Assembly: GCA_003151815.1 (NCBI GenBank)
Contig: PLYN01000024.1
Coordinates: 19,917-83,916, forward strand
Direction: 5' to 3'
From: Bacteroidota bacterium
GTDB taxonomy: Bacteria; Bacteroidota; Bacteroidia; 2-12-FULL-35-15
Length of the DNA stretch: 64,000 bases
Every line of letters starts with the position of its first letter. Within the stretch, counting starts at the first letter, position 1. Positions 23,920 to 57,698 of the stretch are shown here, in pieces. Below the pieces are notes generated by a model. The model did no database searches. It was not told where the DNA came from and saw only the letters and a list, made by a program, of their open reading frames with translations. Made by a program: the position numbers and the translations under genes.

Positions 23920-24004
23920 CAAAGGTAATTTGACTAATAACAATGATCTTCCATTTTTCGTTTAGTTCTCTCATAAAATAGCCAAAAACTATTAAATAGT
24001 CGGT
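23920..24004 (-). promoter_or_regulatory. Island promoter P1 (dksA-cotH): three boxes at 21-bp period plus -7 box
   Basis: Minus strand ACCGACT (24004-23998), GGCTATT (23983-23977), AACGAAA (23962-23956), then TACCTTTG (23927-23920). Confidence 0.75.
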
Positions 24005-24070
24005 GGTGATATAAATTTTAAAAATCTGTCTACCAACTAGAATTATATAGTCATATAATATTAAGATTCT

Positions 24071-24199
24071 CTATGAGAAATTGCATGAATCCCCTAAAAA
24101 GTCAAAATCATTATCTATTATCGTGCAAATTTCGATAGTCGGCGGCTCTGATATTATTTGAGAGGCTGGGACTTGCTCTGTTGTTTTGAAATTTTTCAT
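24071..24199 (-). CDS. Putative 42-aa small protein
   Basis: Hand translation MKNFKTTEQVPASQIISEPPTIEICTIIDNDFDFLGDSCNFS*. It lies directly downstream of promoter P2. Confidence 0.35.
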   Translation of the reverse strand: MKNFKTTEQVPASQIISEPPTIEICTIIDNDFDFLGDSCNFS

Positions 24200-24265
24200 G
24201 TCGCTGCATTTTTTATGATTTGTTTTTATTGAACAAGAATAAACTGATATTATAAATTACTTGTT

Positions 24266-24350
24266 CAAAAATAGTATCGTTTATTTCTAATTCCTTCCTT
24301 TTTTCGTTTAGTTCGATTTAATAATAGCCAAAAAGTGTTAAACATTCGTT
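24266..24350 (-). promoter_or_regulatory. Island promoter P2
   Basis: Minus strand AACGAAT (24350-24344), GGCTATT (24329-24323), AACGAAA (24308-24302), TATTTTTG (24273-24266). Confidence 0.7.
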
Positions 24351-24394
24351 AGTAGAGTAACCCATGTAAGTCAATGCCGTAGAAGGCTTCAGGA

Positions 24395-24443
24395 AATCGA
24401 CTAAAGGGAATAAAAAATCGCTAAGAACAATAAATGAATTGCC
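24395..24443. promoter_or_regulatory. Second 21-bp-periodic triple box upstream of GH paralog 1
   Basis: AATCGAC / AATCGCT / AATTGCC starting at 24395, 24416 and 24437. Confidence 0.55.
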
Positions 24444-24482
24444 AAAAACGTTTTTAGACAAATAAACATTTAATCATAAAAA

Positions 24483-27400
24483 ATGAAAAACATAAAAAAA
24501 ATTATCAAAGTAAGTTTACTTACAGTTGGGTTTTTACTTTCTGTAAAAAGTAGTTACTCACAATTGATCTCGGATCATTTTTTTGGTGAAAACACCTGGA
24601 TGCCGGATACCATTGGTGATTACAAAGCGTGTAAAGAGCCGCCATGTATTTTATATGGTAAATTGCATAAACAATGGAGCAACATTAAAAGTAGTGGAGC
24701 ATCAATTGTTCGTTTTGGAGGTATTGCAGCTGACAAAAACATGCCAACTAATTATCAATATATAAAGATGATCGATTCCATTCGTGCAAAAGGTATGGAG
24801 CCAATTATTCAAGTTCCATTTTGTAATAATCGTTATACCGCTCAACAAGCAGCCGATATTGTTAAGTATATAAATATTATTAAAGGCAAAAAAATTAAAT
24901 ACTGGATCATTGCAAACGAACCTGATCTGAGTTATTCCTTCACTACTTCTTCACAAATAGCGCAATATTTTAAACCTTTTGCTTCAGCAATGAAAGCAGT
25001 GGACCCATCCATCCTTATTGTGGGGCCCGAATGTGCCTGGTTTAATCAAACCATTTTAACAGGTTTAACAACTCCGAATGGTCCTGATGACATTACAGGT
25101 AAAGATGCATCCGGAAATTATTACCTTGATATTATTTCTTTTCATACTTATCCTTTTGATGGAACTCAAACTAGAGCTGATGTTGTTTCAAAATTAACAG
25201 CTCCCAATTCATTAAATGAGAATTTGGCTTATCTAAACACTCGTGTAGCTAATTGTAATTCTGCGCATAATAGAACAGGTGTAGCATTACTAAAGACAGC
25301 TATTACAGAGGCGAATATAAATTGGCAAAACAACACTTCAGATAATTTAAATGGCTTAGGTGCCAATAGTTTTATTGGTGGTCAATTTATGGCGGAAATG
25401 ATGGGCATTGGAATGAAAAATAATTTAGATTTTATTAATATCTGGAGTGTAATTGAAGGAAATTCAACGGCCAGCAATATTGGTTTTATAGATGCTACTA
25501 CCAATAATAAAAAGCCATTGTATTATCATTTTAAACTTCTTGCCAACAATTTCAAAGGAAATTATTTGAACGGTATTACTAACCAGGTAAATGTTAAATC
25601 CTTTGGAAGTCAGAATGCGCAACAAACTTCAGTACTGATTTTAAATGAAGATCTTACCAATAATTATAATTTCACCGTTCGATTAGATAATTCAGCTATT
25701 TCAGGAAATGGTGGATTAAATATTAACATAAATGCAGGATTGAATAAAGAGTATTCCGGTGTTATTAGTAATCAGTCTACCACTATTTTGAAGTTTGATG
25801 CGGCAGGAAATTTAATAGAAAAAACGGAATATAAACTTTCAGGAAATGCTGATGTCAATCTTGCTCCAACAGTTACAACATTGCCTTCTGCTTTGTCAGC
25901 AATAATTATTCCGGCTGCTTCAACTACCATTTGTTCTGGAAGCAGTGTAACATTAAATGCGAATGTTGGAACAGGTTATTCATATCAGTGGAAAAAAGAT
26001 AATACTTCTTTAGCGGGTGCTACCAACTCATCATATATAGCGAATGCCGCCGGAAATTATTCGGTTAGCATAACTTCCGCAGAAATAACTACTACATCTG
26101 CAGCAACAACAATCACGTTATTGCCTGCTCCAATTGCTTCAATTACGCCTCAGGGTGCAACCTCATTTATTGCAGGTGATAGTGTTGTTTTAAATGCAAC
26201 TACAGGAACAGATTACATTTACCAATGGAAAAAAGATAATATAGGTATTAATGGTGCAACTAACACTTCTTATGTTGCAAATCAGTCAGGGGCTTACCAA
26301 ATAAAAACTACCTTGGGTATTTGCAACAATTGGTCTGCTCCACTATCAATTACTGTCTTTCCAAAAGCAACGATCACTGCTGCCGGTGCAACTAATTTTT
26401 GCTCAGGTGGAAATGTTAAGTTGAATGCAAATGTTGTTAAAGGATATGCTTATCAATGGAAAAAAGATAATGTTGCTATTGCCGGATCAACCGATTCATC
26501 TTACATTGCTATAGAATCCGGTGGTTATTCTGTTGTCGCAACTATTGCAGGCCTTACAACAACTTCAGGGATTCAAGTTATAAAAGTAACACCTTTACCT
26601 AGCGCTATTATAACAGCAGCAAGTGCAACTTCATTTGTTGAAGGTAATAGTGTAGTTCTAAATGCAACTACCGGAACAGGATATACTTATCAATGGAAAA
26701 AAGATAATGAACTTATAACAGGAGCTACCAATGGATCATATACAACTTCCATAGCCGGATCATACCAGGTAGAAATTACTTCAGAAATTTGTAAATCATT
26801 ATCCGCTTCAGTTACCGTTGCTGTTCTGCCAATAGCGGTGATCACTGCAGCAGGTAGCACGAGTTTTTGTGCCGGAGGAAACGTAAGGTTGAATGCTAAA
26901 GTAATGACAGGGTATACGTTTCAATGGAAAAAGGATAATATCGAGATTGCCGGAGCAACCGATTCATTATACATTGCTGCTGCGTCAGGAAGTTATTCGG
27001 TGGTTGTAACTAAAGGAGGCAATACAAATACTTCAACAGCAATTGCCGTTACAGCAATATCTGTTCCTGTTGCAACAATTACTCCTTTAGGCGCAACAAC
27101 AATATGTTCCGGTACTGTTGGTTTACAAGCAAATACGGGTTCCGGCTTGATCTATCAATGGAAAAAAGATAATAATGCAATAGATGGAGCTACCAATTCT
27201 TCTTATTCAGCAACTGTTACAGGATCTTATCAAATAAGAGTTACACAAGGTTCATGCACATCGTGGTCAGCACCATTAAGTGTAAGTATTCAAGGTGATA
27301 AAAATGCCACGATAACACCGGATGGACCAATCACATTTTGTTCCGGTGGTAAAGTAGTATTGTATGCTAATACTTGTTCCGACTATTTATATCAATGGAA

Positions 27401-27884
27401 GAAAAATGGAGCAAATATTAAAGGAGCAACTGCATCATCATATATTGCTACAACTTCCGGAAGCTATCAGGTAAAAATTACGTCAAGTGCATTCACAGAA
27501 TGGTCGGCACCTTTATCGGTAACGGTTAATAACTGCAAGCCTTCCGGTTCAATTGCAAGTAAAGAATTGACTTTGGATTCAACTACTGTTACATCTTTAT
27601 CGAACGAGGAAAATGTTAATAGTATTTTTGAAATTAATGTATTTCCAAATCCATCAAATGGAAAATTTACGATACAATTAAGTAATAAAAATTCCGAACA
27701 AAATAATATTGAAATTCAACTTATCAATTCTAACGGACAAGAGGTTTACCATGAAAACGGTAATTTCTTAAATGGCAAAGAAGAAATAATATTGGGAGAC
27801 AATATTACATCCGGACTTTATATCATGAGAGTGATGGTTGGAAATAACATTATCATTAAAAGAATTATAATTAATAATCTTTAA
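24483..27884 (+). CDS. Secreted clan GH-A-like glycoside hydrolase with 7 Ig-like repeats and T9SS CTD
   Basis: Signal peptide; VRFGG, WIIANEPD (acid/base), SFHTYP, ITEAN (nucleophile); seven ~80-aa 'YQWKKDN..I.GAT..SY' repeats; FPNP...GLYIM CTD. Confidence 0.8.
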   Translation: MKNIKKIIKVSLLTVGFLLSVKSSYSQLISDHFFGENTWMPDTIGDYKACKEPPCILYGKLHKQWSNIKSSGASIVRFGGIAADKNMPTNYQYIKMIDSIRAKGMEPIIQVPFCNNRYTAQQAADIVKYINIIKGKKIKYWIIANEPDLSYSFTTSSQIAQYFKPFASAMKAVDPSILIVGPECAWFNQTILTGLTTPNGPDDITGKDASGNYYLDIISFHTYPFDGTQTRADVVSKLTAPNSLNENLAYLNTRVANCNSAHNRTGVALLKTAITEANINWQNNTSDNLNGLGANSFIGGQFMAEMMGIGMKNNLDFINIWSVIEGNSTASNIGFIDATTNNKKPLYYHFKLLANNFKGNYLNGITNQVNVKSFGSQNAQQTSVLILNEDLTNNYNFTVRLDNSAISGNGGLNININAGLNKEYSGVISNQSTTILKFDAAGNLIEKTEYKLSGNADVNLAPTVTTLPSALSAIIIPAASTTICSGSSVTLNANVGTGYSYQWKKDNTSLAGATNSSYIANAAGNYSVSITSAEITTTSAATTITLLPAPIASITPQGATSFIAGDSVVLNATTGTDYIYQWKKDNIGINGATNTSYVANQSGAYQIKTTLGICNNWSAPLSITVFPKATITAAGATNFCSGGNVKLNANVVKGYAYQWKKDNVAIAGSTDSSYIAIESGGYSVVATIAGLTTTSGIQVIKVTPLPSAIITAASATSFVEGNSVVLNATTGTGYTYQWKKDNELITGATNGSYTTSIAGSYQVEITSEICKSLSASVTVAVLPIAVITAAGSTSFCAGGNVRLNAKVMTGYTFQWKKDNIEIAGATDSLYIAAASGSYSVVVTKGGNTNTSTAIAVTAISVPVATITPLGATTICSGTVGLQANTGSGLIYQWKKDNNAIDGATNSSYSATVTGSYQIRVTQGSCTSWSAPLSVSIQGDKNATITPDGPITFCSGGKVVLYANTCSDYLYQWKKNGANIKGATASSYIATTSGSYQVKITSSAFTEWSAPLSVTVNNCKPSGSIASKELTLDSTTVTSLSNEENVNSIFEINVFPNPSNGKFTIQLSNKNSEQNNIEIQLINSNGQEVYHENGNFLNGKEEIILGDNITSGLYIMRVMVGNNIIIKRIIINNL

Positions 27885-27894
27885 ATATATTTTT

Positions 27895-27928
27895 AAAAAA
27901 CCTATCCTGAGATCAGGATAGGTTTTTT
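27895..27928. terminator. Bidirectional intrinsic terminator
   Basis: AAAAAACCTATCCTG-agat-CAGGATAGGTTTTTT between convergent genes. Confidence 0.85.
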
Positions 27929-27966
27929 TAATTTTAATTACCATAGTGTAAAGTAATTTAATACTT

Positions 27967-28374
27967 TCAATTCACGGAGAGATGAAGATCTTTATTGCAT
28001 CTTCTGGACTCATATTGTATACAGTGCTTTACCTTTTTCAATAAAGTGTCCAATTCATAAGGTTTAACAAGATAATCATCAGCACCTTGTTCCAACGCTC
28101 TGGTTAAATAATTTTTTTCAGACATTGTAGTACTAAAAATAAATGGTATTAGAGATGTTTGAGCCGTTTCCGAAAGAAATCGAAGAACTTCGTAACCATC
28201 CATTTTTGGCATTAAAATATCACAAACTATTAAATCAGGAATAAACTTGTTGGCAAGTTCAAGTCCGATTTTTCCATTATTTGTTCCAAGTATATTATAA
28301 CCTTCTATTTCGAGATATTCAGTCAAATTCTCTAGAAAATCATTGTTATGTTCAATCAGCAAAATTGTTTTCAT
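27967..28374 (-). CDS. Stand-alone response regulator receiver domain
   Basis: MKTILLIE, PDLIVCDILMPKMDG, GADDYLVKP. Start at 28374 is supported by the -7 box at 28404-28411. Confidence 0.85.
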   Translation of the reverse strand: MKTILLIEHNNDFLENLTEYLEIEGYNILGTNNGKIGLELANKFIPDLIVCDILMPKMDGYEVLRFLSETAQTSLIPFIFSTTMSEKNYLTRALEQGADDYLVKPYELDTLLKKVKHCIQYESRRCNKDLHLSVN

Positions 28375-28403
28375 AGTCGTTTGATTATTTGTGGTTGCAA
28401 TTG

Positions 28404-28488
28404 CAATGATAGTCCTGCCTCCCCTTTGCTTCATTTCTTTTTCGTTTAATTCTTATTTATAATAGCCAAAAACTGTTAAATAGTCGTT
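28404..28488 (-). promoter_or_regulatory. Island promoter P3 (receiver protein)
   Basis: Minus strand AACGACT (28488-28482), GGCTATT (28467-28461), AACGAAA (28446-28440), TATCATTG (28411-28404). Confidence 0.7.
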
Positions 28489-28531
28489 GGTGGCATAACA
28501 TTAGTAATATATGCTCGTAATACGAACAGTG

Positions 28532-28580
28532 AATCGCCGAAAGGGAGATTAAAATCGCCCAGAACAATAAACGAATCGCT
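28532..28580. promoter_or_regulatory. Second 21-bp-periodic triple box upstream of GH paralog 2
   Basis: AATCGCC / AATCGCC / AATCGCT starting at 28532, 28553 and 28574. Confidence 0.6.
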
Positions 28581-28609
28581 AATGAGTTTTTTAAACTAAA
28601 TCATATATC

Positions 28610-30337
28610 ATGAAAAACATAAAAAAAATATTTCAAGTAAGTTTACTTACAATGAGTTTGTTTTTTTCAATGAAGAGTGGTTATGCACAAGTAATTTCAA
28701 ATCATTTTTTTGGTGAAAATGCATGGATGCCTGATACCATTGGGGATTACCAAGCATGTAAAGAACCACCATGTATTTTAAATGGTAAACTGCATAAACA
28801 ATGGGGCAACATTAAAAACAGTGGAACATCCATTGTTCGTTTTGGAGGTATTGCTCCTGATAAAAATATGCCAACCAATTATCAATACATCAAGATGATT
28901 GATTCCATTCGTGCAAATGGTATGGAGCCAATAATGCAAGTACCTTTTTATAATAACCGTTATACAGCTCAACAAGCAGCGGATATTGTTAAATTTATAA
29001 ATGTTACAAAAAACGAAAAAATTAAATACTGGATCATCGCGAATGAACCCGATCTAGGTTATTCTTATACTACTTCGGCACAGATAGCTCAATATTTTAG
29101 ACCATTTGCTTCAGCTATGAAAGCGATTGATCCATCCATCTTGATTATCGGACCTGAAATATCAAGTTTTAATCAAACTATAATGAATGGTTTAACAACA
29201 CCAAATGGACCAGATGATATCACAGGAAAAGATGCATCAGGAAATTACTACCTCGATGTTATTTCTTTTCATACCTATCCTTTTAATGGAAGTCAAACCA
29301 GAGCACAAGTTGTTTCAAAATTAACGGCTCCCTATTCTTTGAATGATAATTTAATTTATCTAAACACCAGAGTAGCTGCTTGTAATATCGCTCATAATAG
29401 AACAGGAGTAGCACTTCTTAAAACAGCTATTACAGAGGCGAATATCAATTGGCAAAATAGTGCTTCTGATAATTTATCCGGCGTAGGTGCCAATAGTTTT
29501 ATTGGAGGTCAATTTATTGCTGAAATGATGGGTATTGGAATGAAGAATAGTGTAGATTTTATTAATATATGGAGTGTCGTAGAAGGAAATTCAACAGTCA
29601 GTAACGTTGGTTTTATAGATGCCACTACGTATAATAAAAAACCTTCATTTTTTCATTTTAAACTTCTTGCCGAAAATTTTAAAGGAAATTACGTGAACGG
29701 TATTACCAATCAGTCAAACGTAAAATCCTTTGGAAGTCAAGATGCTCAACAGGTTTCCGTTTTGATTTTAAACGAAGATCAAACCAATAATTATAATTTT
29801 ACTGTTCGTTTAAATAATGATAAGGCTAATGTAAACAATGCATTAATAATAAATATTAATGCAGGTATCAGCAAAGAATATGTAGGTAAAATATCAAGTC
29901 AATCTTCTGTATTGCTTATTTTTAATGCTTCAGGAGATATTATTAAGAAGTATGAATATTCACTTAATGACAATGCAATGGCTAACCTTGCGCCTACTTA
30001 TACAGAATTCGCTTCTACAGTTATAACTCCTCCTGCTCCTGCTACTGATTCTGCAGTTGTAGCAACAACTATAAATGGGATTAGCAATGATTCTGAAATG
30101 AAAGTATTTCCAAATCCTTCAAACGGAAAGTTTACCATTCAATTTAATAATGAAAATTCCGAGCTAAAGAATATTCAACTTATTAATACAATCGGACAAG
30201 AGGTTTATAGCAAAAGCTCAACCTTCATAGGTGGTAACGAAGAAATAGAATTAGAAGGCAACATAGCCGCCGGAGCTTATATATTGAGGGTGATGGACGG
30301 AAAAAATACAACAACAAAAAAAATTATCATCAATTAA
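28610..30337 (+). CDS. Paralogous clan GH-A-like glycoside hydrolase with T9SS CTD and no Ig repeats
   Basis: First ~465 aa closely match 24483..27884, including NEP and ITEAN; short P/T/A linker, then FPNP CTD. Confidence 0.8.
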   Translation: MKNIKKIFQVSLLTMSLFFSMKSGYAQVISNHFFGENAWMPDTIGDYQACKEPPCILNGKLHKQWGNIKNSGTSIVRFGGIAPDKNMPTNYQYIKMIDSIRANGMEPIMQVPFYNNRYTAQQAADIVKFINVTKNEKIKYWIIANEPDLGYSYTTSAQIAQYFRPFASAMKAIDPSILIIGPEISSFNQTIMNGLTTPNGPDDITGKDASGNYYLDVISFHTYPFNGSQTRAQVVSKLTAPYSLNDNLIYLNTRVAACNIAHNRTGVALLKTAITEANINWQNSASDNLSGVGANSFIGGQFIAEMMGIGMKNSVDFINIWSVVEGNSTVSNVGFIDATTYNKKPSFFHFKLLAENFKGNYVNGITNQSNVKSFGSQDAQQVSVLILNEDQTNNYNFTVRLNNDKANVNNALIININAGISKEYVGKISSQSSVLLIFNASGDIIKKYEYSLNDNAMANLAPTYTEFASTVITPPAPATDSAVVATTINGISNDSEMKVFPNPSNGKFTIQFNNENSELKNIQLINTIGQEVYSKSSTFIGGNEEIELEGNIAAGAYILRVMDGKNTTTKKIIIN

Positions 30338-30362
30338 TAATAATTTAAACTGCTTTTAAATA

Positions 30363-30397
30363 AAAATCCCATCCTGCTATAAGTGGGATGGGATTTT
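30363..30397 (+). terminator. Intrinsic terminator
   Basis: AAAATCCCATCC...GGATGGGATTTT hairpin after the stop at 30337. Confidence 0.75.
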
Positions 30398-30447
30398 AAA
30401 TTTATTCAATAAATTCATTCAACTATTAAATAATGATTCTCTTGTTC

Positions 30448-30511
30448 GGCTATCTGAAATGCCCTCTTAACGAATATAAAGAAAGCGGATATTGACATAT
30501 AGGTACATTTG
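30448..30511 (+). promoter_or_regulatory. Island promoter P4 (DUF6629-like gene)
   Basis: GGCTATC (30448), AACGAAT (30469), TACATTTG (30504-30511). Confidence 0.7.
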
Positions 30512-30528
30512 AAAAAACGAAAAAAAAT

Positions 30529-31224
30529 ATGTGTTTTTCAGCTGAAGCCAGTTTTGGAGCAAGTGTAATTCTTGGTACTGTGGGTGTTATAACAGTGAGA
30601 CAAGTTCAAACCAAATCGCAATTGCCTTTTGCAATCATTCCTTTTATTTTTTCATTTCAACAGTTTACAGAAGGTGTTTTGTGGATGACATTTCACAATA
30701 ACAATCTTGCTTTTTTGCAGCCAATTGCTACTTACACTTTTTTAATATTTGCTCAGATTGTTTGGCCTACATGGGTTCCTCTTTCAATTGTTTTGCTTGA
30801 AAAGGATGTTAGACGTAAAAAAATATTATACGTTATTTTAGGATTAGGGATACTATGTTCGGTTTATATAACATATAGTTTTTTATTCTACAATGTTCAT
30901 TCTGAAATAAGTAATCATCATATTCAATATACTTTTGATTATCCTCATACAGCTCATTTTTTATGGTTAACAGGATTATTTTATTTTATTCCAACAGTTG
31001 TTTCTACTTTTATTTCCAGCGTTAAAAGAATGCAAATTCTTGGAATAATTATTTTACTTTCTTGTCTTATTACTAGAATATTAATGCAACAGCATTTTAT
31101 TTCTGTATGGTGTTTCTTTGCTGCTCTTATAAGCGTAATTGTCCTTTTTATAATTTTCAGACTGCAAAAATCTGCAGATGTGCTTGATACCTTAACACCT
31201 CTATCTACAACCTTTCAAAGGTAG
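30529..31224 (+). CDS. DUF6629-like integral membrane protein
   Basis: Starts MCFSAEASF; QQFTEG..W; C-terminal SVWCFFAA; about 7 TM helices. Confidence 0.7.
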   Translation: MCFSAEASFGASVILGTVGVITVRQVQTKSQLPFAIIPFIFSFQQFTEGVLWMTFHNNNLAFLQPIATYTFLIFAQIVWPTWVPLSIVLLEKDVRRKKILYVILGLGILCSVYITYSFLFYNVHSEISNHHIQYTFDYPHTAHFLWLTGLFYFIPTVVSTFISSVKRMQILGIIILLSCLITRILMQQHFISVWCFFAALISVIVLFIIFRLQKSADVLDTLTPLSTTFQR

Positions 31225-31297
31225 ATTTCCTGTTTACTTGCTTCGCTACCCTTCACAAAGAAATCAATCAGGCAATACAAATTTAAACTATCACGAT

Positions 31298-31382
31298 AAC
31301 TATTAAGATTCCTGTTTGGGCTATTGAAAATACCGCATCACCGAATACTGCTTTGTGGATACCCTTTTCTCTAATAGATTTG
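31298..31382 (+). promoter_or_regulatory. Island promoter P5 (GT4-GH57 operon)
   Basis: AACTATT (31298), GGCTATT (31319), ACCGAAT (31340), TAGATTTG (31375-31382). Confidence 0.8.
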
Positions 31383-31436
31383 TTAGCGGAAGAAAATATG
31401 TTCATCATCTAAAAAGCAAAATATCAATAAATATCA

Positions 31437-32735: not shown

Positions 32736-32740
32736 ACATC

Positions 32741-34045: not shown

Positions 34046-34055
34046 ATAAATTATT

Positions 34056-37077: not shown

Positions 37078-37464
37078 ATGAAAAATAAAAATCAATTACC
37101 TTTTATGTATTATGAATTAATTAACAAAAAATTATTCCTTCTTCTGTTAATAGTGATTCTATTTATAGCATTAAAATCAAATGCTCAAACCGTTTCATCT
37201 CCAAAAAATATTGATGAAGTTGAAGTTGTAAGTGATGAGTTAAATAATAAAATGAATATAGAATTTAGCACAGAAAAGGAAATATATAATTTGTTGGTTT
37301 TAATTACAGATAGTCTTGGGCAAACTGTTTTCCTTGATAATCGTTATCGTTTTAAAGGAGATTATAAGCATAGTATTGACTTTAAAAACTATAATAAAGG
37401 ACCGTATTCAATTAAAATAATTGGTGATAATGAAAAGATCATTAAAAAAGTTGATGTAAAATAA
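37078..37464 (+). CDS. Small secreted protein consisting of a signal peptide plus a T9SS-CTD-like/DUF3244-like domain
   Basis: 128 aa; signal peptide ending SNA-Q; 'ITDSLGQTVF...IDF...KGPYSIKI...IKKV'. Confidence 0.65.
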   Translation: MKNKNQLPFMYYELINKKLFLLLLIVILFIALKSNAQTVSSPKNIDEVEVVSDELNNKMNIEFSTEKEIYNLLVLITDSLGQTVFLDNRYRFKGDYKHSIDFKNYNKGPYSIKIIGDNEKIIKKVDVK

Positions 37465-49368: not shown

Positions 49369-49575
49369 TTACTTTTTACCTGTGGCAATTATTACAACAC
49401 CACCTGCTAATAGTATTGCCCCAACGATTGGAGACCATTGAACGGGATGGTCTTTTTCCTTATTTATTTTTATAGGACCCAAGTCAACCACTTTTTCAGT
49501 GGTTACATAATTAAAGCCCGTATATATCATCATTAATACTCCAATTACGATAATTACTATTCCAATATTTCTCAT
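49369..49575 (-). CDS. Small two-TM membrane protein
   Basis: 68 aa with two hydrophobic helices around TEKVVDLGPIKI..WSP. Confidence 0.75.
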   Translation of the reverse strand: MRNIGIVIIVIGVLMMIYTGFNYVTTEKVVDLGPIKINKEKDHPVQWSPIVGAILLAGGVVIIATGKK

Positions 49576-49809
49576 TTGTATTTTGTATTTTTAAAATTAT
49601 TTGATCAGCAAAATGACACAAATTCAATTATTGCCTATTCATAAATTGTATTTTCCTTTCGGATAAAAATTGCCACAAAGTCCGATAGCTTTCTGTTCTG
49701 GTTTTAAAGATTTCTATTATTAATCTTTCTTATATTGAGCGTTAACCAGCGGACTTTATGCCAAAAAAACTATATCGTTTTTTAAAATTTGATCTTGTTT
49801 AATAATAAA

Positions 49810-50697
49810 TTAACCTTTCACTATTACTAAATATTTTGATTCACTCCAGAATTTTTCAGGATTTGTAATAATTAAGTTTTTAATTAAATCTTTATCCTTT
49901 GCGTCTTTTTCCAAAGTATATGAATCGCTTGGGTGAGAAGTAACGATTTTAACACCATCGTGATTAATAGCGATCTTCCCTACTTGAGTATAGTCAATTA
50001 CAATAAACTTGCTTTTATCTAAGTTACTATTCAATTTAGAAGTTCTTCCAATACCAAGTAAACCGCCTTTCCTGTCAATTATTTTTGACTCCTGAAGATC
50101 TTTTGATTTTCCGATCACATAATAAGCAGTATGCAATGCAGCTGTTTCTTCACTAATGGTTTGCGATTTTGTAGCATTATCTAAGGTAAGTTTCTCCATA
50201 GAAGTTTGCAATTGCACAATTTCTAAATTTAGCTCAGTTAGCTTTTCATTCAATGTAGTAAGCTCAATAGTTTTTTGTTCAAGTTGAGTGTTGAGTTTAG
50301 AGATCATTGTTTCAAGTTCCTTATTTTTTCTTCCTGAACGTTTCAATTTTTTATTCAAGCCGGCAATCGTTTTGCGATTTTGATCCATAAGACTATTGAT
50401 CGTTTCAATTTGAGTGGTGATGCGGATCTTTTGATTTGCTTTTGATTCAATACCTGACTTACCTGAATTAGCACTGATCATTTGTTGTTTAGCTGTAATG
50501 GAATCCAGATTGCGTTCTACATCTTTGAAATAAGAAATATAATCGCTGATAGATGAATCTCTTTCTATAAGTGAAGAGTTTTGTTCATTTACAATTGCTT
50601 GTAACGAATCTTTTTGATGATTTGACTGATCAAGCGCTGCTTGGTTACATGATGCCATTAATATGGAGGCTGATGCAATAAAAATATAATTTTTCAT
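49810..50697 (-). CDS. Coiled-coil lipoprotein (Cbp1-like family)
   Basis: Lipobox MAS-C; long coiled coil; C-terminal YYVIG...GGLLGIG...HP..SY...P.KFWS.SKYLVI. Confidence 0.7.
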   Translation of the reverse strand: MKNYIFIASASILMASCNQAALDQSNHQKDSLQAIVNEQNSSLIERDSSISDYISYFKDVERNLDSITAKQQMISANSGKSGIESKANQKIRITTQIETINSLMDQNRKTIAGLNKKLKRSGRKNKELETMISKLNTQLEQKTIELTTLNEKLTELNLEIVQLQTSMEKLTLDNATKSQTISEETAALHTAYYVIGKSKDLQESKIIDRKGGLLGIGRTSKLNSNLDKSKFIVIDYTQVGKIAINHDGVKIVTSHPSDSYTLEKDAKDKDLIKNLIITNPEKFWSESKYLVIVKG

Positions 50698-50772
50698 AAT
50701 TTTTTTGGTTTTTTTTAAGTTTTTTGTTTTGTTTTTATTTTTATTTTTTTTGTTTTTAAATTATTATTCAAC

Positions 50773-51465
50773 TTATTCAGCTGCAAGTTTCTTACTTGTT
50801 GCCGGGGTAAATTTCTCAGGAAACTGTTTTACGATGCCATCACTAAGCATGTCTGACATTTTTAAAATTTCGTCATGTACTTTATCATAAGCAAGCACAT
50901 CGGCATCATAATTTTTTTTGATCCGTTGCATAATTTCATCCGTTGTTAGTTTAAGGTGATCAGCCATCATCATTTTCATGTCCGCCAATTTCCAATTAGG
51001 ATTAGCTTTACAAAGAAATTCCGCGATCTCGTTTGCGTTTTCATTCCATCTTATGTTAACTTCACCAACTGCAGTTTCATTACCTTCTTTAGCAACTTTA
51101 ATTACTTCGGCAGATATATTGATATGCGCATAAAGCAACTCTGTTAATTTTTTTCCGGCATCTTCACCATAATATGGTTTAATAGCATCTCCGATGCTAA
51201 CCTGATTTTGTAATAAACGTTTTACCGCTTGATCCGTTCCCGGAAGTTCATCTACCAGGCAAAGAATAACATTACGAGTCCATGTTACATGATCTTCCCA
51301 AAGTTTTCTCATATCCATTTTCAGAAGAACATTTGAAGTTGAGTTGTTCTTGATAGTTGTCTCCTTCATTTGTGCCATTGAGGGGTTTGAAAAAAGAACT
51401 ACAACCATCAATGTGATCGTAGATAATAATTTTGTAGTTTTTTTCATTTTAGTTGCGTTTAACAT
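50773..51465 (-). CDS. Exported all-helical protein with repeated His motifs (ferritin/hemerythrin-like fold suspected)
   Basis: Signal peptide SMA-Q; LWEDHVTWTR, LLYAHI, MMADHLKLT, VHDEI. Confidence 0.6.
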   Translation of the reverse strand: MLNATKMKKTTKLLSTITLMVVVLFSNPSMAQMKETTIKNNSTSNVLLKMDMRKLWEDHVTWTRNVILCLVDELPGTDQAVKRLLQNQVSIGDAIKPYYGEDAGKKLTELLYAHINISAEVIKVAKEGNETAVGEVNIRWNENANEIAEFLCKANPNWKLADMKMMMADHLKLTTDEIMQRIKKNYDADVLAYDKVHDEILKMSDMLSDGIVKQFPEKFTPATSKKLAAE

Positions 51466-51509
51466 CTTTAAGTTTTTAATTGTAAATGATACTATTTTGT
51501 TTTCGGATT

Positions 51510-51594
51510 CAAATGTATATTAGGAGTGTAGTTTATATGATTGATATTCGTTAAAGGAGGATATAAAATAGCCAAAAACGAAATCCGTATAGTT
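51510..51594 (-). promoter_or_regulatory. Island promoter P7
   Basis: Minus strand AACTATA (51594-51588), GGCTATT (51573-51567), AACGAAT (51552-51546), TACATTTG (51517-51510). Confidence 0.8.
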
Positions 51595-51708
51595 GTTGGT
51601 GGCATTCAATTCATTGAAAGCCCAGAATAAATATTTCTTGCTAATATTTTAATTGGAAAATTTTGAGGAGTTCAAATAGTCCAAATATTTATTAGGATTT
51701 CCCCTTTC

Positions 51709-51771
51709 AGCTATTTTTTATCCTCCTTTAACGAATATTAATTCCCAGAGAAAATTGTTGCGATATATTTG
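51709..51771 (+). promoter_or_regulatory. Island promoter P8 (dps-like gene)
   Basis: AGCTATT (51709), AACGAAT (51730), TATATTTG (51764-51771). Confidence 0.75.
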
Positions 51772-51857
51772 AATATAATTTTTTATAAGAATCTATTTAT
51801 AAAGAAAAATTTAAAAGCACTTTAAATTATTTTAATATTACAATAACAAAATTAATT

Positions 51858-52415
51858 ATGAAAAAAGTATCGGTCATCACCAGAAAATCTGTATCACATA
51901 ATATATATGTAACACCCAAAATCGAAACTGCTGAAAGGAAAATAGAATCTGTTACATTATTACTTTCAGCTTTATTGTCTAATGAAATTTCGCTTTATGT
52001 TAAGACAAGAAGATTTGATTGGAACGTTTCAAAAGTTAATAGCCTTGAAATGCATAAATTATTTCAATTTCAATATGTTCAACTTGAGAAATCGATTAAG
52101 GAAATAACCCAACGAATTAATAAATTAGGAAGCCGCTCTGTTAACACAATGAATGAAATATTAAGATTATCTCCAATTAATGAAGCGCCAAAACACTACC
52201 CGGGATCAAAGGGCATGATTAGAGATTTACTCGCCGATCATGAAACTGCGATTGCTAATTTGAGAAATGATATTGGCGTTATTTTCGAAAAATACAATGA
52301 TGCGGATACTGCTGATTTTCTTATATTCCGAATGGAAGCACATGAAGTAATGGCGCAATTTCTTAGAAGAGCCAATCTTTCACAAAGGAGTCTACCTGAT
52401 TACTTATATAATTAA
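51858..52415 (+). CDS. Dps-like ferritin-fold protein with degenerate ferroxidase ligands
   Basis: LYVKTRRFDWNV...MHKLF..QY..L...EITQRI..LG; MIRDLLADHE; D.DTADFL....E.HE. Confidence 0.75.
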   Translation: MKKVSVITRKSVSHNIYVTPKIETAERKIESVTLLLSALLSNEISLYVKTRRFDWNVSKVNSLEMHKLFQFQYVQLEKSIKEITQRINKLGSRSVNTMNEILRLSPINEAPKHYPGSKGMIRDLLADHETAIANLRNDIGVIFEKYNDADTADFLIFRMEAHEVMAQFLRRANLSQRSLPDYLYN

Positions 52416-52574
52416 GAATAATGTTGTGCTGATTCAAACAATGTCATTGTCTTAATAGTAAGATATATTTATTTCCTGAATAAGCCCTGTGTTAGTTGCA
52501 ATTGTAGGAACGCGCTTAACAAAACTTTTAACACAACGAATAAAGCTTTTAGAAATAATTTTTTAAAAAAAACT

Positions 52575-53036
52575 ATGAAAAAATTAAACGGAAAAATTAT
52601 CCTTGTGGATGATGATAAATATGAAAAAGAACTTTTGAAAGATGCTTTAAAGAATAAAAACTGGGATGTGGATCTTGAGTATTTTATGAATCCCATATTA
52701 GCTTTAGAGTATTTTAAAACAACTAAGGACGAAATATTTCTGATAATTTCAGATATGGATATGCCTGAAATGACTGGAATGCAATTAAAACGAGCACTTG
52801 ATAATGACGTATTATTAAGGCACAATACAATACCATTTATTTTTGCAAGTACTTCTTCATCAAAAGGAGAAATTAAAACAGCTTATGTTTATAGGGTTCA
52901 AGGTTATTTTGAAAAACCGGTAACCACGGAAGAACAAGCAAATATGATTGATATAATAATAAAGTATTGGATTGTTTGCAAACATCCCAACGAGAGCGAA
53001 ACGGAAGAAACCAGCAATAATATTTTAAATGCTTGA
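52575..53036 (+). CDS. Stand-alone response regulator receiver domain
   Basis: IILVDDD, IISDMDMP, IPFIF.STS, VQGYFEKP. Confidence 0.9.
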   Translation: MKKLNGKIILVDDDKYEKELLKDALKNKNWDVDLEYFMNPILALEYFKTTKDEIFLIISDMDMPEMTGMQLKRALDNDVLLRHNTIPFIFASTSSSKGEIKTAYVYRVQGYFEKPVTTEEQANMIDIIIKYWIVCKHPNESETEETSNNILNA

Positions 53037-53159
53037 TGTTTAAAAAAATATAATAACCGTTGAAACAAGCGACACGAACGAAAGAGCAATAGCAATCCTT
53101 CAAACATTACCCCTTTTGTCTTCAGGAACCTTCAGCCAAAATGAATAATTGATAAATTC

Positions 53160-53522
53160 TTATACCTTATTAAAAACATTCTTAACACACGTTAAAAGTT
53201 CGTTCACATCAAGAGGTTTGGATAAAAAATAAGTAGCACTTAAACCAAGCGAATTTGCAACAGTGCCACCTTGGTCTAATGAAGAAATGAGTATGACCGG
53301 TATCCTGTCGAAATAATATTCTTTCAGCATGCTAAGCAATCCGAGACCTGAAATGTTGGGCATCATAATGTCACTCACGATCAAATCTATTTTTTGGTTC
53401 TCCAATATATCAAGGGCATTTGAAACATCTTGGGCTAGAATGACTTCATAGCCTTCTTCACCTAAACTATGACTGATAGCTTTAAGCATCAGTTCATCAT
53501 CGTCTACAATTAATATTTTCAT
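53160..53522 (-). CDS. Stand-alone CheY-like receiver
   Basis: KILIVDDD, LIVSDIMMP, ILISS, FLSKP. Confidence 0.9.
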   Translation of the reverse strand: MKILIVDDDELMLKAISHSLGEEGYEVILAQDVSNALDILENQKIDLIVSDIMMPNISGLGLLSMLKEYYFDRIPVILISSLDQGGTVANSLGLSATYFLSKPLDVNELLTCVKNVFNKV

Positions 53523-53550
53523 AATTTTAGTTTTTAAAATATATTTTATT

Positions 53551-54075
53551 TTAATCTTTTATAAAAATTTCCGGAAAAAACAATTGAACTATTGAGCAGA
53601 TAACGATCATTCCTACAAAAATACCTATAGCTATTTTTCCCATTAATTTATAGTTTTTAAGTTCCTTGGCAACTTTTATCGAATTAGCCGCATTGCTGAT
53701 AACAAGTTTAAGACGGTTAAAAACATTGTCGTTTTTAATGATGTAATCATATGCTCCAAATTTTATTAGATTTACCGCTACTTCCATTTTATCCTGGGCG
53801 GAGAGCATGATCACTTTTGTTTCCGGATTTAATTCCATGATCTTTTTTAAAACTTTCAACCCATCCATTGCATTCGGGGAAGTGCTATTCAAAAAATAAT
53901 CTAGAATAATAATATCAGGATGATATTCAAAATTCTTCAAACATTCTTCGCCTGTTGAAAAAGTTCGGATGTTGATTTCGAATTTGAACATTTTTTTTAC
54001 CTGATCTTTTAAAGATGCGGTAAATAGTGGGTCGTCATCCACTATAAAAATAGAAAGAGACTCTGAAGTTTTCAT
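53551..54075 (-). CDS. Receiver domain with a C-terminal transmembrane helix
   Basis: IFIVDDD, PDIIILDY, IMLSAQ, GAYDYIIK; ends IAIGIFVGMIVICSIVQLFF. Confidence 0.85.
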   Translation of the reverse strand: MKTSESLSIFIVDDDPLFTASLKDQVKKMFKFEINIRTFSTGEECLKNFEYHPDIIILDYFLNSTSPNAMDGLKVLKKIMELNPETKVIMLSAQDKMEVAVNLIKFGAYDYIIKNDNVFNRLKLVISNAANSIKVAKELKNYKLMGKIAIGIFVGMIVICSIVQLFFPEIFIKD

Positions 54076-54103
54076 CGTATTTTATTTTTTTAATTGCGTT
54101 AAT

Positions 54104-56596
54104 TTATGAAGGAAGAAAAACTTTTATTTTATCTCTTTTTGTCTGTTTTTGTGCTTTTGTTTCAGTTAGAATTTGCGCTGATCTGTTCTTTTCGACTGAG
54201 AGCATATATTTCTTGTCTTCCCATGTTTGGGAATCATGCCAATAAAATGTATAACTAATATTTTGTTCGTAGTCTAAATTTACTGTAGGTAGATCAGCGA
54301 AATGAATTCCTAATCCGGAATCAAGAGTTACAACATCATTAGTTGTTTCCCAATTATCTGAGGACCATTGGATGGTCGCTGAAGCGAGGCATTCTATACG
54401 TAATACTTTTCCTTTTGGTATGTATTTATATTGAGTTCTGAAATTCCAAATAATAATATTTGAAACTTTTTTTTCAATTACATAACGTTGATTGGTTTGT
54501 GATGGCATATCAAATACCTGCTTGGCTTCCAATGAACGACAGAGTTTTATATATTCTGAATGTGCCCATACTAATGGCATTGCGCCTCCTGTTGGTTTAC
54601 CTGTATATAGATCCAGTTCAGGAATATCTTCTGCATCCCAAATTTGTTCAGGAAACAATCCTGTTTCGGTTGCATAGTTTTCAAAAGTTTTTAATAATTC
54701 TTTGGCATATTCATAATTTCCAGCGGCTATTTCATAATGTGCACGTTCTCCTGTTAATAAAGGCCATGGGCGACCAATGCCTGTTCCATTAAAAGGGCTT
54801 CCATCAACATGTTCACCATAACCATCTCCATTGTATCTATACCAAACCGGCCCCAAAGGATTATCAAATTTTAATGTTGCATCAATTACTTTAATTGTAT
54901 TAAGTATATGCGGATCGTCCGCAGCTCTTAAGCCAAAACGTACCAATGCTAATGCATCCGGACTTACCATTTCATTGGCAGGACAAATATTTTCTCCTTT
55001 AGGACGATTGGAAATGGTGAGCAGTTCAGTGCCCCGATTATCAAAATCAAATTGTTCCTTTGCGTTAATTCTAACATAATAACCTTCAACGCCAACAAAT
55101 TTTGCCAGATCCGATCCGGTAACATAGGTCCATCTTTCTATACTTGAATTCCATGCATCTGCAGTTTGTCTGAGATATTTGGCAACCTGAGGTTCATTAT
55201 TTTTATCGGCATGTTCAGCTGCTATAAGAAGAGCCGCAATTTCAACAGCTAAGGTAAAAGTAGAATAACCTGCATTTTCTTCCCAACGATCTTGTGCTGT
55301 GATAGGACCATGCATAACAAGATAGCTGGCTGCTTTTCTGACCATTGGCCAAAAATGTTTCAAATCACTTTCCGAAAGTTCCACTTCTCTATTAACTAAG
55401 TCAACTAACATAATTGGTAAGGCTGTTTGATCCATTTGAATACCACTCCAATACGGAGACCCATCCAACCACATGTTCTGTGTCCAATGTCCGTCATCCT
55501 CCTGAGTAACCATCAAATAATTTAAAACTCTTCTCGCATCTTCAAATGCTTTAGCAGCAAGTAATCCACCTGCTGTTTGAACCATGTCTCTTGGCCAAAC
55601 TAAATGGTAACCACCCAAATCGTCATCGCCTTTGCTATATCCCCAAGGGATGGAAAGGCTTGCTATTAAAGCGCCAGGGTGACGTTTGGATTCGTGTGAC
55701 TTAAGCATTGCCGCACTAATATTAAAATATTTAGGCGATAAACTTTCCTTAGAAGTATTGAATGAATATAATTTTTTTTGCCATCCTTGCCACTCTTTAA
55801 TAAACTTCTCTTTGGCAGATTCAAAACTTTCAAAGATGCTTGCTCTTGCCCGTTGCCCGGCTTCTTCCGGATTTCTTCCAAAACCAAGAGCCACTATAAA
55901 ACTATTGCCCTTGATCTCGTCCAGATCAAATTCGCCTGTTAAAGCCACGTTGCCATTTTCGGCACGTTCAAATTCCCAAGCCATTTCTTTGTGTAACATC
56001 AAATCCTGCCAACCGTCAGAAGTTCCTACAAAACCTGCCGAGCATTTTTTCCAAGGTACTGAACATGCCAATGCCAAAGAAACATCCCCACGTTGAGCAA
56101 ACAACATTGGCAGCCCTTTGTAATTGTCAACCCAGGCAGTATTACATGATCCATAATTTCCTAAATGCGGAGCCAGCAACATAAACAATTTTAAATCTTT
56201 CCGTTTCTTGTTGGTAGGGAAAAATTGAATTCGTTGAAGTACGGTATCTCTGGTCGGATCAGAAATAATTTCCTTTTCAATACGATAATTATGATGATTA
56301 CAGCTGTTGGTAAGATGATATCCCGGAACACCTTTGGCCATATATTTAACATGGTGAGAAGTGTGAAGTTTCTCTTCAGAAAAAAAATCTTTCCCATCAG
56401 TTACAATCAAGCCCAAATCTTTGGTACAAGCCTGATCTACCTGTGGATAATAAATTTCATTTAAAATACCTTGACTGATTGAATACCAAACTTTGCTGGT
56501 TGAGTTAAGTGAAGTTCCAACTCCACTTTTGGCACTCGAAGTCCATCTGGCATCAATTCCAGGCCAACCAAAAGCAAATTTTTCTTTTTTATACAT
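54104..56596 (-). CDS. Glucan 1,4-alpha-glucosidase (GH15 glucoamylase with glucodextranase-N domain), cytoplasmic
   Basis: AFGWPGI..RWTSSAK.GVG, YHLVWPRD, QDRWEE, RYNGDGYG, GRPWPLLTGER, PEQIWD, PLVWAHSEY; no signal peptide. Confidence 0.9.
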   Translation of the reverse strand: MYKKEKFAFGWPGIDARWTSSAKSGVGTSLNSTSKVWYSISQGILNEIYYPQVDQACTKDLGLIVTDGKDFFSEEKLHTSHHVKYMAKGVPGYHLTNSCNHHNYRIEKEIISDPTRDTVLQRIQFFPTNKKRKDLKLFMLLAPHLGNYGSCNTAWVDNYKGLPMLFAQRGDVSLALACSVPWKKCSAGFVGTSDGWQDLMLHKEMAWEFERAENGNVALTGEFDLDEIKGNSFIVALGFGRNPEEAGQRARASIFESFESAKEKFIKEWQGWQKKLYSFNTSKESLSPKYFNISAAMLKSHESKRHPGALIASLSIPWGYSKGDDDLGGYHLVWPRDMVQTAGGLLAAKAFEDARRVLNYLMVTQEDDGHWTQNMWLDGSPYWSGIQMDQTALPIMLVDLVNREVELSESDLKHFWPMVRKAASYLVMHGPITAQDRWEENAGYSTFTLAVEIAALLIAAEHADKNNEPQVAKYLRQTADAWNSSIERWTYVTGSDLAKFVGVEGYYVRINAKEQFDFDNRGTELLTISNRPKGENICPANEMVSPDALALVRFGLRAADDPHILNTIKVIDATLKFDNPLGPVWYRYNGDGYGEHVDGSPFNGTGIGRPWPLLTGERAHYEIAAGNYEYAKELLKTFENYATETGLFPEQIWDAEDIPELDLYTGKPTGGAMPLVWAHSEYIKLCRSLEAKQVFDMPSQTNQRYVIEKKVSNIIIWNFRTQYKYIPKGKVLRIECLASATIQWSSDNWETTNDVVTLDSGLGIHFADLPTVNLDYEQNISYTFYWHDSQTWEDKKYMLSVEKNRSAQILTETKAQKQTKRDKIKVFLPS

Positions 56597-56672
56597 TTAG
56601 GATATTTAGTTTGATATTTGCGCAATTCAAATAAAATAATTGCAAGTAATAATTTTAAAATGTGTTATTTTT

Positions 56673-57353
56673 TTATTTGGTTTTCTTTGTAGATTTTACT
56701 TTTGAACTTTCAGTTTCTAATTTATCAGAAGCTAATATAGGTCCATTAATCTCATCAAAATAATAAGTATCAGAACTTAAAGAATTGGGGTTAAACAATA
56801 AGGTAAGCTGATCTACTTCGTTAGTAGAAGTTTCACTACCTTTTGGAATTTGAGAAAATTTAAATTGCACTACCTCCCATGCATTGCTCACTGTGGTATA
56901 AGCTTGATATTGGCTATTCGTTCCTGCTGGATATTCATTGTTACGCCCCTTGCTGCCCAATAAAATTTCTATGAGCGTTCCTACAGGTGCTGATGTATAG
57001 ATTTTCATACTTAATTGAGGAGGAATTCCTAAATACGTTGCGTAGTTATCTACAGCGGATAATTTGCCGGGGAAAGACATTTTAATATTATCGAATTTTT
57101 TTGTGCGGTTGCGGACATATAGCGCACAAGTTTTTGAGCTATTTATATCATTGAGTGCAGGGTTTATTGCAACAGTATCCAAAACACCCGATTTTTCTGC
57201 ATAATGTAAATGTTTAGCCCCTTCAAAATTATCATAACATTGCGATTGACCAACCATATAATTTGAATAAAATAAAAAAGCCATAAATACTACCGAGTAC
57301 ATTTTTATGCTGCTTTTATTTTTTGACAGACTTTCTTTTTTATTTGTTTTCAT
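56673..57353 (-). CDS. Exported single-domain protein resembling a carbohydrate-binding beta-sandwich
   Basis: N-terminal hydrophobic segment; 'NP....INSS..CA.Y.RN', 'AWE...F.F', 'LLFNP...YYFDEI'. Confidence 0.5.
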   Translation of the reverse strand: MKTNKKESLSKNKSSIKMYSVVFMAFLFYSNYMVGQSQCYDNFEGAKHLHYAEKSGVLDTVAINPALNDINSSKTCALYVRNRTKKFDNIKMSFPGKLSAVDNYATYLGIPPQLSMKIYTSAPVGTLIEILLGSKGRNNEYPAGTNSQYQAYTTVSNAWEVVQFKFSQIPKGSETSTNEVDQLTLLFNPNSLSSDTYYFDEINGPILASDKLETESSKVKSTKKTK

Positions 57354-57396
57354 GATTGTAAATTTTTTATTATAAAGATTTAATAATTATATAATG

Positions 57397-57481
57397 CGAA
57401 ACTAAATAAGATCGGCAGTGTCTTCTATTAATATTCGGTGATAAGGTATTTTCAATAGCCGAAACTGGAATCCAGATAGCC
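57397..57481 (-). promoter_or_regulatory. Island promoter P9 (CBM-like gene, GH15, receivers)
   Basis: Minus strand GGCTATC (57481-57475), GGCTATT (57460-57454), ACCGAAT (57439-57433), TAGTTTCG (57404-57397). Confidence 0.8.
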
Positions 57482-57614
57482 CCGTTAGGTATCGGTCGAA
57501 TTCATTAGAAATACTTTTTTAAAACATATTGTTTTTAAAATTAATTCAAACACCCTAGAGTTTAGCGGAAATAATAGAATAAAAAAAACAATCGAGCTTT
57601 TATAAAAATAATGC

Positions 57615-57698
57615 AGCCATCAATAATTGTTTTTTGGCGATTCAAAATCCCTACCGAACGAATATCAAAAAAAACAGAACAATGTTCATCTAAATTTG
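57615..57698 (+). promoter_or_regulatory. Island promoter P10 (nucleotidyltransferase-PGI-VTC operon)
   Basis: AGCCATC (57615), GGCGATT (57636), AACGAAT (57657), TAAATTTG (57691-57698). Confidence 0.8.

Follow-up and report, generated by a model that had tools for sequence, protein, structure and literature searches.

The stretch of DNA analysed here (the window) comprises 64,000 nucleotides of contig PLYN01000024.1 (C13; G000:C13:19917-83916) from the assembly GCA_003151815.1 of a Bacteroidota bacterium (2.53 Mb, 61 contigs, 76.6% complete, GC content 34.6%). From about 21 kb onward the window contains numerous genes for cargo proteins with the C-terminal domain (CTD) of the type IX secretion system (T9SS), of Ig, PKD, FG-GAP, CotH, SBBP and GH26-like types. 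The same part encodes alpha-glucan functions, namely a GT4/GT5 starch-synthase-like protein, GH57 and GH15 proteins, phosphoglucomutase, a sugar-phosphate nucleotidyltransferase and a PGI-like protein, and also a Dps/ferritin protein, a DksA/TraR-type zinc finger, an SRPBCC protein, VTC/DUF4956 proteins and four receiver-only proteins. Ten sites in this region, P1 to P10, share a promoter element in which the heptamers GGCTATT (box 2) and AACGAAT (box 3) stand upstream of a TAnnTTTG-like -7 box. The region had been described in an earlier note as an island. A gene cluster is present, but no integrase, transposase or conjugation genes were seen among the open reading frames (ORFs) scanned and the GC content is flat; a mobile element is thereby ruled out, and an accessory regulon cluster is the better description.

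The shared array was found to be real by several measures. All ten sites contain GGCTATT-N14-AACGAAT at the positions and on the strands reported in the earlier note, so that its claim of ten promoters with a common array holds in full. In a count independent of any trained matrix, GGCTAT-Nx-ACGAA occurs 10 times genome-wide at x = 16, which corresponds to a 21-bp box period, and 1-3 times at each other occurring x between 10 and 20. A 35-nt matrix spanning box 2 to box 3 (32.5 bits) was built from 24 sites of at least 25.5 bits, because a low-threshold first iteration had drifted to 78 matches. With this matrix, 24 sites of at least 20 bits were detected in the 2.53-Mb genome, versus a mean of 0.25 and a maximum of 1 in 20 second-order Markov genomes and 1 in the reversed genome, demonstrating that the motif stands above background frequency. 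In leave-one-out scoring, 23 of the 24 training sites still reached at least 22.2 bits, and P1 was recognized although it lay outside the training set. Alignment of the 24 sites with MAFFT needs just one one-base gap; likeness is limited to the boxes and the -7 box, the flanks differ between sites, and all sites face a gene start 40-300 nt away. The core-gene promoters at 1-21 kb had been said to lack the array, and indeed no site of at least 12 bits was found by the matrix scan in window 1-23900. One candidate, at C52 10352 (22.0 bits), was dropped as a false site, having only 12.5 bits in leave-one-out scoring and no -7 box.

The -7 box, which played no role in site selection, was observed to lie at a fixed register. 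Counting from the C of the CGA in box 3, strict TAnnTTT[GA] was found at +32 in nine and at +33 in nine of the 25 sites of at least 15 bits (18/25 strict; 22/25 with one mismatch allowed), whereas no other offset from 5 to 79 yielded more than one strict match. This confirms the proposed distance of 32-33 nt. In Flavobacterium psychrophilum, the sigma-A box TAnnTTTG occupies -12 to -5 (PMC9723704), which agrees with the reading of the element here as the housekeeping -7 box. On that scale the boxes would lie at about -46/-40 (box 3), -67/-61 (box 2) and, where present, -88/-82 (box 1). All three boxes lie on the same helix face. Of 22 regulon promoters, 2 have a TTG at -26 to -20 from the TA, compared with 72 of the 336 generic candidates; the generic -33 signal (TTG/TTTG) is itself faint in this genome.

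The start-to-start distance between boxes 2 and 3 is 21 nt in all sites. The spacer between them is itself conserved (AAAAT.CC), pointing to three contact blocks about one helical turn apart. A third box upstream (box 1, strict RVCYAT) was found 21 or 20 nt 5' of box 2 in 8 of 25 sites, versus about 0.13 expected. Of the three-box array first described, boxes 2 and 3 are thus present in all ten sites, but box 1 occurs in only about one third of sites. The box-1 position of P2 is occupied by a box-3-type heptamer, AACGAAT.

The regulon had been thought to be confined to 23.9-57.7 kb, which proved too narrow. Ten of the genome's sites lie in the window, five lie farther along C13 (to a position equivalent to window 79.2 kb), and the remainder were found on C40, C20 and C51 (Table 1). 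Behind the sites outside the window lie genes for PAS hybrid histidine kinases, an Hpt protein, receiver-only proteins, an AraC-type protein, a STAS protein followed by a cellulose-synthase-like GT2 glycosyltransferase, a second CotH T9SS protein, an outer-membrane beta-barrel protein and an alpha/beta hydrolase. The same clusters also hold a hemerythrin, a CheB-CheR fusion and an ice-binding-like T9SS protein. No NCRFL-type LOV motif or other obvious sensory signature was found in the six kinases of the cluster.

Table 1. Motif sites, the genes behind them and candidate regulators. Positions without a prefix are window positions; L001 denotes contig C13 beyond the window end (L001:15302-15894 = C13 99218-99810). 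C, position of the C of the CGA in box 3.
Feature	Position	Strand	Score (bits)	Description
P1	23920-24004	-	18.0	Box 2 23977-23983; box 3 23956-23962 (C 23960); -7 box TACCTTTG at 23920-27, offset +33; box-1-like GACTAT 18 nt upstream of box 2
Genes behind P1	21288-23845	-		Putative operon
DksA/TraR-type zinc-finger protein	23360-23845	-		Pfam assignment; behind P1
CotH + P-domain + T9SS-CTD protein	21288-23351	-		Pfam assignment; behind P1
P2	24266-24350	-	27.1 (22.2 leave-one-out)	Box 2; box 3 (C 24306); -7 box TATTTTTG
P3	28404-28488	-	27.2	Box 2; box 3 (C 28444); -7 box TATCATTG
Receiver-only protein	27967-28374	-		Follows P3
P4	30448-30511	+	41.9	Box 2 30448-54; box 3 (C 30471); no box 1; -7 box TACATTTG at 30504-11
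DUF6629 protein	30529-31224			Downstream of P4
P5	31298-31382	+	38.0	Boxes 1-3 (C 31342); box 1 AACTAT at -21; -7 box TAGATTTG
Genes behind P5	31437-36866	+		GT4/GT5 starch-synthase-like; GH57; PKD-repeat T9SS cargo protein
P6	36974-37057	+	38.8	Boxes 1-3 (C 37018); -7 box TATCTTTA
Small T9SS-CTD protein	37078-37464	+		First gene behind P6
Further same-strand run behind P6	to 42914	+		GH26-like T9SS protein; BadF-type ATPase; phosphoglucomutase; presumed co-transcription
P7	51510-51594	-	39.0	Boxes 1-3 (C 51550); -7 box TACATTTG
Secreted 230-aa protein	50773-51465	-		No known family; behind P7
Coiled-coil 295-aa protein	49810-50697	-		Behind P7
T9SS cargo genes	down to 43030	-		Same strand as P7
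P8	51709-51771	+	33.3	Box 2; box 3 (C 51732); -7 box TATATTTG
Dps/ferritin-like protein	51858-52415	+		Behind P8
Receiver	52575-53036	+		Behind P8
P9	57397-57481	-	44.7 (second best in genome)	Boxes 1-3 (C 57437); imperfect -7 box TTAGTTTC
Genes behind P9	53160-57353	-		226-aa secreted protein; GH15 glucoamylase/glucodextranase; two receiver-only proteins; putative operon
P10	57615-57698	+	34.1	Boxes 1-3 (C 57659); -7 box TAAATTTG
Genes behind P10	57751-63999	+		Sugar-phosphate nucleotidyltransferase; PGI-like; two proteins of no assigned function; VTC-domain; DUF4956; DUF2490 (runs past window end)
Strong sites, C13 past window	C13 85360, 93086, 93333, 96316, 99122			Site at 99122: 40.7 bits
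Strong sites, C40	C40 4999, 7389, 8196, 10773, 19618, 19734, 26011
Strong sites, elsewhere	C20 2064; C51 468
RR1, REC-LytTR	L001:5643-6341 = C13 89559-90257	-		5.6 kb past window end
RR2, REC-LytTR	L001:13272-13994 = C13 97188-97910	-		13.3 kb past window end
AraC-type gene	L001:15302-15894			NN at L001:15603-15604 splits a frame of about 195 aa in two

Some features of these clusters stand apart from the promoter analysis. Only a 42-aa ORF (window 24071-24199, -) lies between P2 and P1, P1 starting 346 nt downstream; the two could be tandem promoters, or P2 could serve a small protein or small RNA. Two paralogs of 226 aa (window 56673-57353, -) and 228 aa (L001:12489-13175, +) share 61% identity over 201 aa; both start with a signal-peptide-like sequence, match no Pfam family and are encoded by the first gene behind a strong site. 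Paralogous proteins with CotH, proprotein-convertase P-domain and T9SS-CTD are encoded at window 21288-23351 (-) and L003:10664-12754 (-), each behind a motif site. The CheB-CheR fusion (L003:3050-5362, -) lies directly upstream of an Hpt-bearing hybrid kinase (L003:792-3080, -), and no further chemotaxis genes were noticed in that genome region. Tandem repeats of about 18 aa (AELGIANxELAFQxEEKGKR type) fill the ORF L001:15975-16553, which runs off C13, and recur in the N-terminal part of the same hybrid kinase/Hpt protein. A toxin-antitoxin-like DUF4160/HTH_3 pair (L001:419-1274, -) sits mid-cluster and has no motif site.

Which protein might read the array? LytTR sites consist of two repeats of 9-11 nt with 11-13 nt between them, upstream of the core promoter (PMC4847170), and this matches the period found here, as anticipated from the direct repeats of about 21 bp. 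A LytTR regulator had been predicted to lie past 64 kb, and two REC-LytTR genes, RR1 and RR2, were found there. Only three LytTR genes are present in the genome, and two of them sit in this cluster. RR1 and RR2 are paralogs with 76% identity; their LytTR domains (PF04397) score 68.9 and 69.3 bits (cut-off 22.6) and their receiver domains (PF00072) 80.4 and 81.3 bits, respectively. RR1 retains the acidic pocket and phospho-acceptor (D7, D8, D53 in FLDVEMP, and K98) and aligns with the MrkE receiver, its likeness to solved structures being confined to the receiver domain. The notion of one activator not encoded in the window is therefore supported as to location, but the activator may be two paralogs. 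RR1 and RR2 are surrounded by HisKA/PAS hybrid kinases, receiver-only proteins and an Hpt protein, many of which stand behind motif sites. A partner kinase of LytS or AgrC type next to the regulator is typical of the family without defining it; no LytS-type kinase (PF06580) was matched in the 76.6% complete genome, AgrC-type kinases lying outside that search. Nor did the genome yield an OmpR-type regulator.

The motif was found to accompany close homologs of RR1. Neighbourhoods of RR1 homologs were scanned at 80 loci (site threshold at least 14 bits) from public metagenome-assembled genomes of uncultured Bacteroidia/Bacteroidota. The 25 loci with a homolog of at least 61% identity contain 28 sites in 386 kb (7.25 per 100 kb), versus 5 weak sites in 880 kb (0.57 per 100 kb) at the 55 loci with a homolog of at most 55%; the reversed-sequence control gave 2 matches over all 80 loci. 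By a relaxed pattern, a -7-like box stands at +32/33 in 30 of the 33 sites. Sites lie immediately 5' of the regulator gene at 3 of the 25 close loci (L008, 28.8 bits; L011, 22.8; L010, 17.3) and right past its stop codon at L010, L011, L017, L019 and L022. At L010 and L011 the gene right after the regulator, behind a motif site, encodes a hybrid kinase that spans about 2200 aa and combines three receiver domains and a GAF domain with more than ten HAMP repeats (L010:10852-17499, L011:10980-17495).

The same trend was observed with a sequence-only profile of the whole element in the 67 other genomes of the genus, which make up the entire order in this collection. At least five motif matches were found in 18 of the 24 congeners with a close homolog (E<=1e-85), versus none of the 43 without. 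Of 146 genomes sampled elsewhere in the class, 142 lack any motif match; the motif occurs in all 3 that have a close homolog (74-84% identity) and in 1 of the 143 others. These three genomes, G121, G122 and G152, have 4, 6 and 12 clustered matches, respectively, with the close homolog on the site-bearing contig. The scan of relatives suggested by the earlier note thus shows the motif following the close LytTR homolog within the genus and in three other families. In addition, single strong sites were noticed beside or on the contig of a distant LytTR paralog (46-49% identical) in two genomes without the close homolog (G048:C66:13320-14503 and G005:C29), and a sister LytTR clade may read a similar box.

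The target families are conserved as well. In G122, a member of another family, the motif sites precede genes for two T9SS proteins (CotH and SBBP), a receiver, a STAS protein, an outer-membrane barrel, a cellulose-synthase-like GT2 and a starch-synthase-like protein of the family found behind P5, and these families are the same as in the present genome. A CotH/P-domain/T9SS-CTD protein is likewise encoded behind a G122 site at L094:11384-13426. The 335-aa nucleotidyltransferase found behind P10 stands behind motif sites at L010 and L018, as does a 335-aa ORF at L016. Besides this nucleotidyltransferase and the regulator itself, the genes behind congener sites encode giant HAMP hybrid kinases, receivers, a barrel and proteins of STAS-like and coiled-coil type, one of each. 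RR1 is 84% identical to a homolog in G152 (C6:81128-81826) and 79% to one in G122 (C7:38696-39397), both of other families, but at most 75% to congener homologs, which suggests that the module has been exchanged between families. Its distribution is patchy: the regulator occurs in 24 of the 67 congeners and in 3 of the 146 genomes from elsewhere in Bacteroidia.

Overall, these sites are probably activator-dependent sigma-A promoters, and RR1 and/or RR2 are the most likely proteins to bind the array. Each promoter combines a good -7 box with a composite site of about 35 nt lying 32-33 nt upstream, made up of box 2, the AAAAT.CC block one helical turn on, and box 3; about one third of the promoters carry a GGCTATT-like third box 21 nt farther upstream. 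The phosphorylated form of one or both regulators would bind as a dimer or longer array on one DNA face beside polymerase and recruit it. We infer this identity of the binder, activation rather than repression, the phosphorelay and the physiology; the shared element, its register, its excess over chance, its co-occurrence with the regulator and the conserved target families are observed directly. RR1 and RR2 would probably take their input from the cluster's Hpt protein and its numerous soluble PAS hybrid histidine kinases, and feedback would result, since kinases and receiver-only proteins themselves lie behind motif sites. The predicted output comprises the storage of alpha-glucan and polyphosphate and stress proteins of Dps, hemerythrin and DksA-like type, together with the cellulose-synthase-like glycosyltransferase and a set of T9SS-secreted surface proteins.

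Several observations weigh against this assignment to RR1 and RR2. The site upstream of RR1 is weak (13.1 bits, -7 box at +32) and lies in the chance range, simulated genomes averaging 5.85 matches of at least 12 bits, and no motif site was found upstream of RR2. Boxes 2 and 3 are identical at only 3 of 7 positions, which would be unusual for a homodimer on direct repeats, and the conserved mid-spacer block is left without explanation by a LytTR binder. Among relatives with the regulator, no motif match was obtained in G050 and G064 and only 1-3 in G016, G057, G058 and G056, and G028 has two good sites although its best homolog is only 43% identical. One of the 24 regulator-positive congeners, G053, is unpublished; the count is 17 of 23 when it is left out. 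The counts also take related, non-independent genomes as they stand, and co-occurrence by itself does not single out the regulator, because every gene of the cluster would share it.

The small AraC-type regulator of the cluster might bind the array instead; this is the main rival, though we consider it unlikely. Proteins of the AraC family (AraC at I1-I2, RhaS, XylS) read 21-bp-spaced direct repeats adjoining the -35 region, and class II activation in that family likewise uses two half-sites 21 bp apart abutting this region. The gene encodes an N-terminal domain of 100 aa followed by HTH_18 (60.6 bits), its relatives being single open frames of 190-210 aa; it is one of just two HTH_18 genes in the genome and sits directly behind the 40.7-bit site on C13, so that autoregulation would be possible. 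Of the 18 motif-rich congeners, 14 have an ortholog with at least 69% identity in the N-domain, and orthologs also occur in all three genomes of other families that have motif and regulator, which tells in its favour. In addition, distant AraC paralogs lie about 0.5 kb past one regulator paralog in G002, G059, G060, G061, G062 and G065. The discordant genomes, however, favour LytTR, because motif counts follow the LytTR homolog and not the AraC ortholog: all eight genomes with an AraC ortholog but no LytTR homolog have only 0-1 motif matches, whereas four of five with a LytTR homolog but no AraC ortholog have 13-34. In G041 (99% complete, 13 matches) no homolog of the AraC N-domain was found at E<=0.001; the query was the N-domain only, which a divergent AraC-type protein could escape. 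The AraC-type gene is read here as a regulon member, possibly of a second tier.

About as improbable is binding by a regulator from elsewhere in the genome or by a family-less cluster protein, perhaps as a repressor or architectural factor, with the LytTR proteins as passengers or targets. Several cluster proteins have no Pfam family, the sites of G028 occur where the close regulator homolog is lacking, and the present genome is only 76.6% complete. However, the array lies at -46 to -88, upstream of the core promoter, which is the position of an activator, the family-less proteins examined carry signal-peptide-like N-termini, and in three other families, too, the motif goes together with the LytTR clade.

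A sigma-factor reading fares much worse and is very unlikely. In it, boxes 2 and 3 would be the -35 and -10 elements (GGCTAT-N17-CGAAT) of an alternative sigma factor resembling those of extracytoplasmic function (ECF), with transcription starting a few nt past box 3. The 17-nt gap suits such a geometry, and CG-containing -10 boxes are typical for ECF factors, a CGT box being reported in motif SM6 (PMC9723704). Left unexplained, however, are the canonical sigma-A -7 box at its fixed register downstream, strict in 18 of 25 sites here and relaxed in 30 of 33 in relatives, and box 1 another 21-nt step upstream; moreover, none of the six sigma-70-family genes of the genome lies on C13 or C40. Finally, chance similarity in AT-rich intergenic DNA or a non-regulatory short dispersed repeat can practically be dismissed, since nothing but the AT-richness of the genome (GC 34.6%) favours it, whereas the 24 sites stand against 0.25 expected, the flanks are unlike, every site faces a gene start and the motif is kept before the same gene families in other species.

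How does the proposed LytTR-dependent system compare with known ones? At the yhjX promoter of Escherichia coli, YpdB (PyrR) likewise uses direct repeats of 21-bp period upstream of the promoter, its repeat GGCATTTCAT resembles box 2 here (GGCTATTnAA), and its binding to the two sites is sequential and cooperative (PMC4847170). Unlike YpdB, which has one target promoter and a membrane LytS-type kinase, the present system has about 24 promoters with Bacteroidota -7 boxes, two non-identical boxes plus an optional third, and no LytS-type kinase found. At the agr P2/P3 promoters of Staphylococcus aureus, AgrA, a REC-LytTR dimer, binds two imperfect direct repeats just upstream of weak promoters, the proximal repeat being centred near -60 (PMC4227749), whereas the proximal box here lies near -43. 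AgrA-type systems serve peptide quorum sensing in Firmicutes and have small regulons, in contrast to the PAS/Hpt inputs and the metabolic, stress and T9SS-cargo outputs predicted here. ComE, VirR and AlgR are further REC-LytTR activators of AgrA-like architecture, among which autoregulatory feedback is common. In contrast to AraC class II activation, the motif here follows the LytTR clade in the discordant genomes, an AraC-type gene being part of the regulon all the same. The alternative-sigma regulons SM4-SM6 of F. psychrophilum likewise place T9SS-related and stress genes under condition-specific control, but their motifs replace the sigma-A -7 box (PMC9723704), whereas here the -7 box is kept and the specific element lies upstream.

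A limited literature search turned up neither a LytTR regulon nor a LytTR binding motif described for Bacteroidota. The architecture is that of known LytTR activators (PMC4847170, PMC4227749), with three features that would be unusual: the size of the regulon, the unlike boxes and the placing of orphan regulators in a PAS/Hpt phosphorelay. A bolder idea, possible but rather doubtful, is a horizontally exchanged, self-contained regulon cassette of Bacteroidia, in which two orphan LytTR paralogs would read the unlike boxes as a heteromer. The cassette would further comprise a CheB-CheR module, a multi-kinase PAS/Hpt phosphorelay whose sinks are receiver-only proteins, and over 20 target promoters with a cis code of their own, and it would form a stationary-phase, storage and surface-remodelling switch standing in for an RpoS-like general stress response.

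What emerges is a statistically well-supported cis element at a constant distance from the promoter core, together with a predicted regulon and two proteins as candidate binders; these predictions lend themselves to direct tests with synthetic DNA and protein. For work in Bacteroidota, the array also provides a compact design for promoters that depend on an activator. In a lineage known from metagenomes only, the predicted regulon would join alpha-glucan and polyphosphate storage, Dps-type protection and T9SS surface proteins under one phosphorelay.

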